From IMG/VR virus record IMGVR_UViG_3300023283_000173, positions 1 through 64,000 of that record: a stretch of 64,000 bases of DNA, one strand, 5' to 3'. Below are positions 4,066 to 51,050 of the stretch, piece by piece. Within the stretch, counting starts at the first letter, position 1. Every line of letters starts with the position of its first letter. A program made the position numbers and the translations under genes. Origin of the DNA: a virus (lineage: Duplodnaviria; Caudoviricetes). The notes under the pieces were generated by a model. It saw only the letters and a list, made by a program, of their open reading frames with translations. It did no database searches and was not told where the DNA came from.

Positions 4066-4446
4066 TCACTCCTCACATGTGACGAGGCCTGCCCGCTCAG
4101 CCTCGTCGTTGTAGACAGCTCCCTCGAAGTCGCAGGCCGGGAGCGCGAGTCCCTCGGAGACCAACGCGGCCCCGAGGTCAGTCGTCTCGACGACGTCGCA
4201 CCGCGCCACCACGCGGCCCCACGACGCGCCCTTCACGTCACACCGTACAGTCTTCTCGAGGACCAGGTCTTCCGTCGCCCTGGTCGCCTCGTCGAAGCCG
4301 CGACTACCTCTCTCCGGCGTGTTGACGGCCCACAGACGCACCCGTACCTCGTCCCCGGCGGGGGTGATCACGTCGAGTGTGTCTCCGTCGACCACGTTCG
4401 TCACCGTGCCGATCAGGCAGCACGCTGCCAGTACCTCACCGATCAT
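4066..4446 (-). CDS. Thermonuclease (staphylococcal nuclease-like)
   Basis: VVDGDTL, RVRLxAVNTPE and WGRVVA motifs. Confidence 0.85.
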   Translation of the reverse strand: MIGEVLAACCLIGTVTNVVDGDTLDVITPAGDEVRVRLWAVNTPERGSRGFDEATRATEDLVLEKTVRCDVKGASWGRVVARCDVVETTDLGAALVSEGLALPACDFEGAVYNDEAERAGLVTCEE

Positions 4447-4774
4447 CGCTCATCCTCCTCGAGAGTGCGGCACGGACCATAACTCGTACCGACTCCGCCA
4501 GTTGCCGCAGGGACAGGTCGACCTGGAATTCTCCGGCGTACCGCTCGATGTCACACAGACTCCTGCGGAGGGTCCGCACCTCCTCCCTCAGACCGTCTAC
4601 GAGGTCCTCGCGCACGTACTTGACGTCGCTGTCAAAGATGCGGTGCCAGCACCACGTGACCTCGCTCGCTACGACGTCTACGGGCCGGTCGTCCAGGCCG
4701 GGGTCGTCTTCGCCGTATAATTGCAGCCACACTTCGTCCGGTGCACCTCTCTCGTCGGTCTCGATCTCGTCCAC
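4436..4774 (-). CDS. Hypothetical acidic protein
   Basis: 112-aa ORF, GTG after GGAGGG. Confidence 0.6.
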   Translation of the reverse strand: MDEIETDERGAPDEVWLQLYGEDDPGLDDRPVDVVASEVTWCWHRIFDSDVKYVREDLVDGLREEVRTLRRSLCDIERYAGEFQVDLSLRQLAESVRVMVRAALSRRMSDDR

Positions 4775-4802
4775 GGTAACACCCTCCTATACGATCTAAA
4801 CA

Positions 4803-4928
4803 CTCTAGACGAATACACTCGCATATTACGGTACTCTCTGGATTGTCGGTTCGTTCAAAACCAACGGTACTCTCTTATCTTTCGACTCGCTTCCGGCTTA
4901 CGGTACCCTCATGGAGCGTGGCTCACTC
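4803..4928 (-). ncRNA. TIGR-like dual-repeat guide array (about 3.5 units of 36 nt)
   Basis: Minus strand: GAGTGAGCCA cgctccat GAGGGTACCG taagccgg AAGCGAGTCG aaagataa GAGAGTACCG ttggtttt GAACGAACCG acaatcca GAGAGTACCG taatatgc GAGTGTATTC gtctagag; directly after a Nop/IS110-like gene. Confidence 0.8.
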
Positions 4929-5747
4929 CGGCGGCGCGATGTAGTGCGCGTGACCGAGTAACTCGACCGCGAACGGCTTCGGAGGCTCCTTGCCGAGGTA
5001 CTCCCTGTACATCACCTCGTGTAGGTGAGACAGGTAGATCTTCGTCGCCCAGCGCATCGCCCGCAGGTCCAGTCTGCCCGGTGGTAGTCTCCCGGCCTCG
5101 TAGCACCTGCGCGTAGCAACGTCTCTGATATCGCGCGTCTCAAGGGTCTCCCTGGCCGTCGCGGCGTTACCCCCGGACTCATCACGCTCCACCTCGTACC
5201 GCTTCCGCTCCACGTACAGTCGACCGTAGAAGCAGCCGTCCCTGTTGTGGTTCTTCTTGAAGCTGTCACCGATCTTCCAGCAGACTACCTTGAGGTCAGC
5301 GTTCCACGGCCTCCTCTTACCCCTACCCCACACGGATGTCGGGTCGAGTCCCGCGAACCTCCACACGGCCCCGGCCGTGGCAGCACGGTTCACGTCTATG
5401 TGCGCGAGCGTACCCGCGGCGAGTACAGGTCCGATCCCGACCTGCCGGAGCTGCCACCTGCCGACGGGGTCGTCGGCCACCCAGGCATGCAGGAAGTGCC
5501 TTATGGACCGCTCGACGACCCCAGCCTGCTCAACCATGTACTCGGCCAGTGGGTTGCCCCCCTCGCTGCTGCGGGCCTGGTTCGCGGCCATCTTCCGTAT
5601 GTCCTGTAGCTGGTAGTATTGCTTGACCGCGGCCCTCACGTCGCCGTGGTTCAGCTCCATCGACTCCATCAGTGCCCTCGCAGCCCTCGGCGTCAGGCGT
5701 CTCACGTCCTCGAGCGCGTCGTCAGGCTCTACGCGTGTCTTATTCAT
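4923..5747 (-). CDS. tasA: TasA-like Nop/IS110-type RNA-binding protein, no nuclease domain
   Basis: Helical N-terminus, then GIGPVLAAG..HIDV..ATAGAVWRFAGLDP (Transposase_20/Nop-like) and RAMRWATKIYLSHL; no DEDD RuvC or HNH; adjacent 36-nt array. Confidence 0.75.
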   Translation of the reverse strand: MNKTRVEPDDALEDVRRLTPRAARALMESMELNHGDVRAAVKQYYQLQDIRKMAANQARSSEGGNPLAEYMVEQAGVVERSIRHFLHAWVADDPVGRWQLRQVGIGPVLAAGTLAHIDVNRAATAGAVWRFAGLDPTSVWGRGKRRPWNADLKVVCWKIGDSFKKNHNRDGCFYGRLYVERKRYEVERDESGGNAATARETLETRDIRDVATRRCYEAGRLPPGRLDLRAMRWATKIYLSHLHEVMYREYLGKEPPKPFAVELLGHAHYIAPPE

Positions 5748-5971
5748 ACGTCGTCCTCCCTCTCGAAGTCGGACAGTCTACCGACGTAGTCGCAGGCCTC
5801 GCTGCTACAGATCGCCGCGGCGTCCGTACGTAGCTGGTCAGCGTTCTCCACGCCGTACGTCTCATCCACGGGCTCGAGCCGGCCGTCCGAGGTGAGCCTC
5901 ATAACGACCGGCACCTCGCACCGCATGTCCGTGTCGCCGCATCGGGGGCACTCATACCTGATCCCTTCCAT
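5744..5971 (-). CDS. Small putative Zn-binding protein
   Basis: CPRC ... CSSEAC; stop overlaps the Tas start. Confidence 0.6.
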   Translation of the reverse strand: MEGIRYECPRCGDTDMRCEVPVVMRLTSDGRLEPVDETYGVENADQLRTDAAAICSSEACDYVGRLSDFEREDDV

Positions 5972-49359: not shown

Positions 49360-49524
49360 TTACCTGTTCGTTTTCGTGGGATCGACCTCGATCTCGAGAC
49401 CCTCCGCAGAGGCCCACACCCACTTCAGGCGACGTGCCTCCACAGGTACGTCCTCGGGAGACACCTCCGTCGCGACCGCGGCCTCCTCGTCAGTAAGCTC
49501 CTGCTTCTCTACCTTATCACTCAC
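49360..49524 (-). CDS. 54-aa acidic protein coupled to MuF-ART
   Basis: Own translation MSDKVEKQELTDEE...PTKTNR*; GTGA overlap. Confidence 0.55.
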   Translation of the reverse strand: MSDKVEKQELTDEEAAVATEVSPEDVPVEARRLKWVWASAEGLEIEVDPTKTNR

Positions 49525-51050
49525 TCTATCAACTCCGCTTCTACGACCCTCACTCCGTTTATGGTCTCCTGCGTGACCTTAGTCAGGCGTAACTTGGTAC
49601 GCCTCGCTAGTAACAACTCTGACTCGAAGGAACTGCCTCCGACCTCTGACTTACCTATAGGTATAGCTCTCGTACCTCTTTTCAACTTGATACGAAGGAC
49701 CACGTCTTCTAGAGGATTCTCGACGAAACTCTTCATTACATCTCTGTCCGTTGTAACCGACATAAACCCTGGATCTCTTACAGCAGATCCCTCCAAGAAA
49801 GACAGGTCGTCTACACCAAATGTATCTTTAGCCTTTCTCACACCCCTGTACACGACCACATCTCTCTGGATCGCAGACACCCTGACTACTGAGTCAAGTG
49901 AGTCGACAACACGCTCGAAACCAAGAAAGTCGAGCCTGTCCTCAGAGACCTCGGCTATTATAGTAGGAGGTAGTGTCTGACCTCTCAACCTAGCATTCAA
50001 CGCCAAGTACCCATCACCCTGATAGAACTCTACCATGTTTCTCTCGGTTGAAGTGAGGTCTCGCGCTATGGTGGCCTTCTCAACAAACTCTTTGTACCCC
50101 TTAGTCCCTACGAACTCCTTGAAATCAGCCTGCTCGACAACCGGGGCCTCCACCTGCTGCGTATCCGGTGCCTGCTGCACGGGCACCACCTCGGTGACCG
50201 ACCCCGCCTCGACCAATACGCCCCGGCAATTCGGATGGTACGGTGGACTTCCCAGGTTCTCGTCCTGAAGCTGCTGCGGCGTTTTCGAGCGGAGGACCGC
50301 CACCGCTTCCGGCTTCTGACTGGGCCACGGCGCTACGCTCCTGAGCTCCTGCGGATCCTGCGTGCGTAGTGCTCCGTCTATCCTCGAGAATTCCTTGCTT
50401 ACCTCGAACGTCTTGCCATGCATCGTCTCGCAGACGGGACATATCCGGTCGTCGAGTATCTCGCTGACCTGATAAGTCGTGATCTGGAGCTGCTGCGCCT
50501 CGGCGAGGAACCCAAAAGTCACGAGGCGGCTAGTGAACAGGTTCGCCCCGATCTCGGTGACACTGCGACCGCCCCCGAGCACCACCCTGTTGATCTTCTC
50601 GACCAACACCTCGTCTGCCTGCTTCTGCAGTACCTCCCCGTCGTCGTCCTTGCTCAGGCGCTGCTCCTCAGCGTCAAGTAGTCGGTCCAGGCGGTCCCGC
50701 AGTCCGTCAGACAGGTCCTCGAGCAGCTCGTCGAACTGCCTCACCGCGTTGTCGACCACCTCGCTGACCGACACGCCGCCCTGCACGATCGCCGTCTGCT
50801 CTACCTCGGTGAGTCTGGCCCCGCCCAACAGCATCGCCGACACAGCCAGCTCCTCCAGCCTGTTCCGTATCGCGTCGACCACCCCTCGCGTGGAGATCGA
50901 GTCCGCAGCGTCGGACGCCTGCTTGAACTTCCCCTCCGCGAGTAGGTCGGCAACCTGTCGTGCCTTCTCCTCGGCCTCCGCCCGCCACGCCTCGAAGACC
51001 GCGTCGGCCACGGTGGACTCCAGCGACAGGAAGGCCTCAACCTTGACCAC
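49521..51050 (-). CDS. MuF/SPP1 gp7-like head protein fused to an ADP-ribosyltransferase
   Basis: DDRICPVC..PPYHPNCR (MuF), then VYRG / FMSVT / FESELLL (R-S-E ART). Confidence 0.85.
   Translation of the reverse strand: MVKVEAFLSLESTVADAVFEAWRAEAEEKARQVADLLAEGKFKQASDAADSISTRGVVDAIRNRLEELAVSAMLLGGARLTEVEQTAIVQGGVSVSEVVDNAVRQFDELLEDLSDGLRDRLDRLLDAEEQRLSKDDDGEVLQKQADEVLVEKINRVVLGGGRSVTEIGANLFTSRLVTFGFLAEAQQLQITTYQVSEILDDRICPVCETMHGKTFEVSKEFSRIDGALRTQDPQELRSVAPWPSQKPEAVAVLRSKTPQQLQDENLGSPPYHPNCRGVLVEAGSVTEVVPVQQAPDTQQVEAPVVEQADFKEFVGTKGYKEFVEKATIARDLTSTERNMVEFYQGDGYLALNARLRGQTLPPTIIAEVSEDRLDFLGFERVVDSLDSVVRVSAIQRDVVVYRGVRKAKDTFGVDDLSFLEGSAVRDPGFMSVTTDRDVMKSFVENPLEDVVLRIKLKRGTRAIPIGKSEVGGSSFESELLLARRTKLRLTKVTQETINGVRVVEAELIE

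Follow-up and report, generated by a model that had tools for sequence, protein, structure and literature searches.

The DNA analysed here, referred to below as the window, is a stretch of 64,000 nucleotides (nt) corresponding to positions 1 to 64,000 of the IMG/VR virus record IMGVR_UViG_3300023283_000173, from a virus of the Caudoviricetes. Its minus strand carries tasA (4923..5747), an open reading frame (ORF) of 274 codons whose translation is a nuclease-free Tas protein, and a short array of alternating repeats that begins over the stop codon of the gene and runs on the same strand to position 4811. The two elements are read here as a dual-repeat TIGR-TasA system in a tailed phage. This reading is given a probability of roughly 0.88, and the transcription, processing and DNA binding that it implies would follow by analogy with characterized relatives; TIGR-Tas systems were described in 2025 (PMC12045711). 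An earlier note on the same DNA had proposed a TasA-type protein with a dual-repeat TIGR array, and the proposal holds for both components, since the protein is Tas by sequence and by fold and arrays of this kind adjoin most homologues of its gene.

Organization of the array

The minus strand from 4928 to 4811 divides exactly into blocks of 10 conserved and 8 unique nucleotides. The array consists of four edge repeats of the GAGCGAGCCR type, which alternate with three loop repeats (GAGRGTACCG), and of six 8-nt spacers, which together make up three 36-nt units. All elements lie on the minus strand. The first unit opens with edge repeat E0 (GAGTGAGCCA, 4919..4928), which includes the tasA stop codon TGA (4925-4923), and continues with spacer A1 (CGCTCCAT, 4918-4911), loop repeat L1 (GAGGGTACCG, 4910-4901) and spacer B1 (TAAGCCGG, 4900-4893). 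It is followed by edge E1 (AAGCGAGTCG, 4892-4883), spacer A2 (AAAGATAA, 4882-4875), loop L2 (GAGAGTACCG, 4874-4865) and spacer B2 (TTGGTTTT, 4864-4857), and then by edge E2 (GAACGAACCG, 4856-4847), spacer A3 (ACAATCCA, 4846-4839), loop L3 (GAGAGTACCG, 4838-4829) and spacer B3 (TAATATGC, 4828-4821). The terminal edge E3 (GAGTGTATTC, 4811..4820) is truncated at its 3' end and retains only its 5' half (GAGTG); a 3'-truncated edge repeat is how TIGR arrays finish (Faure et al., PMC12045711). All loop repeats, E1 and E2 end in G, and E0 ends in A. The block structure agrees with the earlier note, which had picked out conserved repeats 36 nt apart (starting at 4910, 4874 and 4838), a looser class alternating with them and a unique spacer of about 8 nt after each repeat. 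The looser repeats start at 4928, 4892, 4856 and 4820 and alternate with the conserved ones at an 18-nt step.

With a cut in the middle of each edge repeat, a site assumed by analogy, the array would yield three tigRNAs from the minus strand. Predicted tigRNA 1 (4888..4923, 36 nt) comprises the 3' half of E0, A1, L1, B1 and the 5' half of E1. Predicted tigRNA 2 (4852..4887) runs from the 3' half of E1 through A2, L2 and B2 to the 5' half of E2, and predicted tigRNA 3 (4816..4851) from the 3' half of E2 through A3, L3 and B3 to the 5' half of E3.

An nhmmer profile of the 46-nt unit (edge, spacer, loop, spacer, edge) was built solely from the arrays of other loci and searched against both strands of the whole 80,494-nt genome. 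The profile recovers all three units, at 4928-4883 (E 2.7e-5), 4892-4847 (E 6.5e-5) and 4856-4815 (E 5e-4) on the minus strand, and its next match elsewhere in the genome reaches only E 2.3. With one mismatch allowed, the window has 20 copies of GAGRGTACCG, where 16 are expected, and the non-random feature is therefore the arrangement of the repeats and not the 10-mer alone. No Rfam family matches at the array; to our knowledge, TIGR arrays are absent from Rfam. The array RNA folds no more stably than its shuffles (z -1.18). An array of the stem-loop type is disfavoured by this value, which suits dual-repeat arrays.

The TasA protein

The 274-aa translation contains GIGPVLAAGTLAHIDVNRAATAGAVWRFAGLDP at residues 104-136, which is the IS110/Nop-type signature that had been noticed earlier. 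An AlphaFold model based on an alignment of 44 homologues is all-helical, with a mean predicted local distance difference test (pLDDT) score of 91.5 and a predicted template-modelling (pTM) score of 0.88. In this model, the long N-terminal helices at residues 34-60 and 66-91 form a coiled coil, and the C-terminal part is a Nop RNA-binding domain with the processing loop P258-F259...G265-H266. A phmmer search of the PDB yields two significant matches (E < 1e-8), TaTasR (9mty, E 8.7e-10) and SpTasH (21kl, E 4e-9), and the alignments cover residues 78-273, including the C-terminal GH..YI.PP motif. In the Foldseek comparison of the model, TasH and TasR chains take all of the first ten places (E 2e-7 to 1.5e-6, probability 1.0), ahead of the IS621 and ISCro4 recombinases (E 4e-3 to 1e-2). 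The Nop fold for which the earlier note had looked to structure prediction or profile searches is recovered by the sequence search and by the structural comparison, with TasH and TasR at the top of each. Among 50,697 phage records, a tblastn search returns the SpTasH gene of Salicola phage CGphi29 as its sole match.

Pfam reports a single sub-threshold match, to Transposase_20 at residues 104-137 (E 0.002, below the gathering score). It detects no HNH or RuvC domain, and the model shows no extra domain; PF01548, the N-terminal DEDD/RuvC-like domain of the IS110 family, is not matched either, and the N-terminus is instead the coiled coil. The protein therefore has the TasA form as defined by Faure et al. 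(PMC12045711), in keeping with the earlier observation that it lacks both RuvC DEDD and HNH domains. That the gene product is a nuclease-free member of the Tas Nop-domain family is supported by sequence and by fold. TasA also matches PHROG 4285 (E 4.5e-35) along almost all of its length; this family is annotated as 'transposase / integration and excision', a label that is likely to be a misannotation of Tas proteins in phage genomes.

The clade of homologues is large, with more than 2,000 matches, the nearest at 55% identity. Its members are found in prophage-like contexts of many phyla (Acidobacteriota, Bacillota, Pseudomonadota, Chloroflexota and others) and provide no clue to the host. At 24% identity, the RNA-contact residues of SpTasH (K167, K180, H268, R278, R286 and others) cannot be mapped reliably onto TasA and were not used for comparison; the C-terminal dyad is the one part of this set-up that can be aligned with conviction between the two proteins.

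Arrays beside homologous genes

The neighbourhoods of homologous genes were compared at 80 viral and 48 cellular loci. The viral set was collected by a profile search, which was needed because a search for loci with the single protein gave only one weak viral locus. A chain detector for same-strand arrays of six or more repeats finds such arrays beside the homologue at 67 of the 80 viral and 22 of the 48 cellular loci, and finds no opposite-strand array at any of them. At most loci, two alternating 10-mers begin right at the stop codon (for example, GAGAGTACCG / GAGCGAGCCG at locus L013), and many arrays start with an edge repeat laid over the stop codon itself (TGAGCCR, TAGCCR or TAACCA). The step from one repeat to the next is 18 nt in 1817/1924 cases. 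Because arrays start and end with the GAGCGAGCC class, as SpTIGR of the Salicola phage also does before its terminator, this class is the edge repeat and the A-rich class is the loop repeat.

The commonest repeats of the clade are GAGCGAGCCA/G for the edge (GAGCGAGCCR) and GAGAG(A/C/T)ACCA/G for the loop. Three of the five distinct intact repeats in the window appear among the commonest variants listed (GAGTGAGCCA, GAGAGTACCG and GAACGAACCG, the last as GAACGAACCA), and AAGCGAGTCG and GAGGGTACCG are represented there by one-base neighbours only. The repeats had been thought possibly divergent in the earlier note; they prove instead to be canonical, being of the commonest type in the clade and close to the AAGCGAGCCA / AAGACAACCA pair of SpTIGR. 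The boundary between repeat and spacer, which had been held to be beyond resolution by eye (10+8 or 9+9), is likewise settled. In per-locus calculations, the ten columns of the repeat carry 1.3-1.96 bits of information and every flanking column carries 0.27-0.42 bits. The drop, from about 1.6 to about 0.35 bits, falls exactly outside the 10-mer, and the format is therefore 10+8.

Edge and loop repeats alike start with GA and end with CC(A/G), and position 10 is A in both or G in both in 65 of 70 distinct repeat pairs. The spacers behave differently from the repeats: between loci with 96-99.5% identity in tasA, the half-spacers in common are a minority, 4-24 of 23-85, as in one pair of arrays that shares 7 out of 50 and 85 and another that shares 9 out of 46 and 23. 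At the level of the clade, spacers vary while repeats stay constant.

Pairing of the edge repeats

In the TasR structure, the box D and box C ends of each repeat pair, and the edge repeat has a further pair that forms between the two ends of one processed tigRNA. The same 70 distinct repeat pairs show the corresponding covariation. Edge positions 3 and 8 are G-C, A-T, T-A or G-T in 61 of them and edge positions 4 and 7 are C-G, T-A or T-G in 58, whereas positions 4 and 7 of the loop repeat are mostly A·A.

Compensation was then scored for every half-edge that departs from the consensus of its own array in the arrays of loci L002-L130. At positions 3-8, such a variant half-edge forms a Watson-Crick pair with its partner across the unit, the half-edge at the opposite end, in 72% of cases, and at positions 4-7 in 64%. 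The corresponding figures are 13-15% in cis within the same repeat and 20-21% with the neighbour in the wrong direction. For 255 cells from unique units, 69% are Watson-Crick in trans, compared with 25.5 +/- 2.3% when partners are shuffled.

The closing pairs of the window follow this pattern and are Watson-Crick in trans in six of six cases over the three units. Unit 1 is closed by G3-C8 and C4-G7, formed by E1 with E0. Unit 2 is closed by A3(E2)-U8(E1) and C4-G7, of which A3-U8 is a compensated double change, and unit 3 by G3(E3)-C8(E2) and U4(E3)-A7(E2), of which U4-A7 is a second compensated double change. Examined in cis, E2 appears broken (A3·C8 and C4·A7). The edge repeats that looked like a looser class are therefore compensated and not decayed. 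Because half-edges are compensated across the unit and not within the same repeat, each 36-nt unit behaves as its own module bounded in mid-edge. This compensation unit by unit hints that arrays may gain or exchange whole 36-nt modules with these boundaries. On the upstream side of shared units, the neighbour's half-edge differs in 6 of 39 and the unit's own half in 1 of 39; on the downstream side, the counts are 5 and 4 of 35, with no asymmetry.

Proposed system and relation to known systems

In the proposed mechanism, which draws on FpTasA, MbTasA, SpTasH and TaTasR, the array would be transcribed together with tasA within a minus-strand operon. A TasA dimer would bind an edge and a loop repeat by their box D (5' GA) and box C (3' CCR) ends, and the transcript would be cut in mid-edge to give three 36-nt tigRNAs. 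Each tigRNA may recognize an adjacent 16-bp site, with spacer A (8 nt) pairing with one of its DNA strands and spacer B (8 nt) with the opposite one. At that site the complex, having no nuclease, would most likely block transcription or replication. TasA is known to co-purify with 36-nt RNAs (PMC12045711) and to act as an RNA-guided transcription repressor (bioRxiv 10.64898/2026.09.09.750476).

The best structural match to TasA is SpTasH of the SpTIGR-TasH system from Salicola phage CGphi29 (PDB 9w03, 9w04, 21kl; PMC12045711, PMC13421893), whose array yields 36-nt tigRNAs by experiment. The two arrays have the same format of 10-nt repeats, 8-nt spacers and 36-nt units. The SpTIGR edge AAGCGAGCCA / AAGCGAGTCA nearly equals the window edge GAGTGAGCCA / AAGCGAGTCG, whereas the loop repeats differ, being AAGACAACCA in SpTIGR and GAGRGTACCG in the window. 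Both systems are phage-borne, with the array just downstream of the gene and on the same strand. However, identity between the proteins is only 24%, SpTasH cuts DNA and carries at its N-terminus an HNH nuclease domain that TasA lacks, and SpTIGR is longer and ends in a terminator, which the three-unit array of the window does not.

The combination of a Nop-only Tas protein with a dual-repeat array is shared with FpTasA of Flavonifractor plautii and with MbTasA (PMC12045711; bioRxiv 10.64898/2026.09.09.750476). By analogy with these two proteins, the TasA of the window should bind 36-nt tigRNAs and serve as an RNA-guided DNA binder or repressor that does not cut. The spacers of FpTIGR are 9 nt (18 nt combined) whereas those of the window are 8 nt (16 nt combined), and the window array is much shorter and is embedded in an operon. 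TaTIGR-TasR (PDB 9mty), the best PDB match by sequence, has the Nop fold and the coiled-coil dimer architecture in common with TasA, for which the dimer is predicted here. Its repeats follow the same logic as those of the window, with a 5' box D, a 3' box C (CCA), an extra covarying edge pair and an A-rich loop, but TaTasR carries a RuvC nuclease at its N-terminus, and its array has 9-nt spacers and repeats that open with UG and not GA. The IS110/IS621 bridge-RNA recombinases (PDB 8wt6, 8wt9) share an RNA-binding Nop-like domain with TasA, which accounts for the GIGP...AGLDP signature and the weak Transposase_20 match. Their DEDD/RuvC domain, their Ser-recombinase-like C-terminal catalytic part and the single bridge RNA are all missing from TasA and its locus, and IS621 is a weaker structural match (E 4e-3, template-modelling score 0.46).

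Systems of this kind are already published and characterized, and a 2026 catalogue counts about 20,000 tas loci and 6,685 arrays (bioRxiv 10.64898/2026.09.09.750476). The present locus does not change what is known of the TIGR-TasA kind, and its notable features are limited to minimal size, an array embedded in an operon and edge repeats that are clearly compensated in trans. It provides a clean and very compact example in a complete-looking 80-kb phage genome. Its value for annotation is that a member of PHROG 4285, labelled 'transposase', is a Tas protein. With a natural three-guide array and all parts within 970 bp, it also offers a convenient minimal case for the study of processing and repression, including the replacement of Tyr by Phe described below, and compensation in trans within an array supplies a simple sequence test for selection on short or 'degenerate' TIGR units.

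Alternative explanations

A number of observations weigh against reading the locus as a TIGR-TasA system. The locus is known from sequence alone, and its expression, processing and binding are predicted here. The array has only three units and lies at the low end of known arrays, of which 5-15 units is the commonest size (Faure et al., PMC12045711). At the box D position, E1 resembles the SpTIGR edges in having A as its first base and not G. The C-terminal dyad that processes pre-tigRNA in SpTasH, Y289/H296 (PMC13421893), aligns with F259/H266, so that the His is kept as H266 and the Tyr is replaced by Phe. A scan of the minus strand for terminators and promoters found neither a terminator nor a promoter-like site. 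The three guides were searched against both strands of the 80.5-kb genome in the tandem geometries rcA+B and B+rcA and as contiguous A+B, and no self-target with two or fewer mismatches was found; the best self-matches have 3-4 mismatches of 16, which is the chance level. Finally, the nearest homologue being 55% identical, the phage's own lineage lies outside the comparison of spacers. The earlier expectation that homologues would combine conserved repeats with variable spacers is thus confirmed for the clade, on the evidence of closely related tasA genes, and not for this lineage, which has no close relative.

Several of these points could also mark a decaying relic, in which the gene is still open and the array is the stump of a longer one that is no longer processed or used. 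The small number of units, the Phe at the processing Tyr position and the lack of a terminator and of a target in the phage genome would fit such a history, as would the departure of the edges AAGCGAGTCG and GAACGAACCG from the consensus and the loss of half of the last edge. A relic is nevertheless distinctly unlikely. The departures in the edges are compensated across units (A3-U8 in unit 2, U4-A7 in unit 3), which is not expected of decay and is seen likewise in the family, so the trans-compensated edges argue against this explanation. In addition, the three loop repeats are near-perfect, the protein retains the clade-invariant residues, including H266, and in vitro processing of arrays with one to three units has been shown for TasR and TasH (PMC12045711). 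The Phe itself recurs in the family. In 120 homologues the dyad His is invariant (120/120), and the Tyr position is occupied by Tyr in 110, Phe in 7 and Trp in 3. Phe is present in 14 of the 80 viral homologues, and 13 of these 14 have arrays of 8-46 repeats; at the fourteenth (L074) the detector reports no array, but variant repeats are visible by eye. TaTasR has Trp at the position aligned with F259. Because Phe homologues carry such arrays and TaTasR has Trp, Phe259 is probably a natural variant rather than a mark of loss. This distribution suggests either that the Tyr hydroxyl can be dispensed with or that processing proceeds differently in the Phe and Trp lineages, which make up about 8% of close homologues and still have long arrays.

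The remaining explanations assign other roles to the protein or to the repeats. If the protein were the remnant of an IS110-family transposase, the repeats could be protein-binding DNA sites, such as operators or iterons, in an intergenic regulatory region. The sub-threshold Transposase_20 match and the 'transposase' annotation of PHROG 4285 point in this direction, and a 36-bp repeat spacing could in principle suit operators. This account is already largely refuted and merits next to no credence: the protein has no DEDD/RuvC domain, its match to IS621 (E 4e-3) is clearly weaker than those to TasH and TasR (E 2e-7), and the repeats are strand-specific, lie always on the strand of the gene in hundreds of copies, show compensatory covariation of the RNA type including G-U, and are those of SpTIGR, an array whose RNA is processed by experiment. 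A different proposal keeps the RNA guides and supplies the missing nuclease from a neighbour, so that TasA and a separate staphylococcal nuclease-like (SNase-like) protein would form a split RNA-guided nuclease, the latter being recruited to, or acting at, the guide-bound site. Such an endonuclease is encoded by an ORF of 126 aa at 4066-4446 (minus strand), two genes downstream of the array and as part of the tasA operon (PHROG 452, E 9e-14; Pfam SNase, 22.4 bits with a cut-off of 21), and an SNase homologue directly follows the array at the related locus L013 (3755-3991). However, L013 is the only one of 81 viral loci (L001-L081) in which tasA and SNase occur together, none of the other neighbouring genes is kept alongside tasA, the early regions of phages commonly encode small nucleases, and contact between TasA and the SNase-like protein is conjectural. 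A split nuclease is accordingly very improbable.

Within the TIGR-TasA reading, the targets should belong to the host or to a rival mobile element, because none is found in the phage's own genome. Guide 1 has a typical G+C content, and guides 2 (4857-4882) and 3 (4821-4846) have 3 and 5 G+C of 16 nt. Only 0.08% and 1.1%, respectively, of the 16-mers in this 61.7% G+C genome are as AT-rich. A tentative and rather unlikely extension of the reading is that the array represents a deliberately minimal, fixed set of three guides and not a large, fast-changing array, that the AT-rich guides may have as their targets AT-rich, promoter-like sequences in the host or in a competing element, and that TasA would act as a hard-wired RNA-guided silencer during infection. 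In that case, excision of the guides would also separate tasA from the downstream genes, including that of the SNase-like nuclease.

Genomic setting

On the minus strand, tasA is preceded by an ORF of 75 aa (5744-5971) whose stop codon overlaps the ATG of tasA (ATGA, 5747-5744), an arrangement that suggests translational coupling. The 75-aa product has no family match and is absent beside tasA in the other loci compared; it is Cys-rich, contains CPRC...C and C..C motifs and is zinc-ribbon-like. The next ORF downstream on this strand encodes 112 aa, and an interval of 148 nt lies between the tasA stop codon and the GTG (4774) of this ORF. The array occupies the first part of this interval and is followed by a 36-nt spacer region (4775..4810, minus strand) with the ribosome-binding site GGAGGG ahead of the GTG. 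Because there is neither a terminator nor a promoter-like site, and because a ribosome-binding site and the next gene follow 36 nt past the array, the array is most likely transcribed within an operon, and processing would cut the transcript.

A comparison of ten flanking ORFs with the 81 viral loci shows none that is kept with tasA as a conserved partner. The only matches are single ones, for the SNase-like gene (L013) and for the 112-aa gene (L070). A TasParB-like neighbour was not found among the flanking ORFs compared. The genome does encode, at 49521-51050 (minus strand), a 509-aa protein with head-morphogenesis or protease-like PHROG matches, and its residues ~150-297 resemble 'ParB-like nuclease domain' proteins of Stenotrophomonas and Vibrio phages. 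Located 44 kb from tasA, this ParB-like protein is probably unrelated to the TasParB association of some TasA loci.

The record is a whole contig of 80,494 nt with a G+C content of 61.7%, and no close relative of the phage is present among the 50,697 phage records. To judge from its gene content, which includes a portal, a tape-measure protein, a 1703-aa tail protein, a DNA polymerase, a primase and helicases, the genome that hosts the locus is that of a tailed phage. The early-gene block that contains tasA also encodes a DUF2958 protein at 2527-2913 on the minus strand (Pfam E 1.2e-37).

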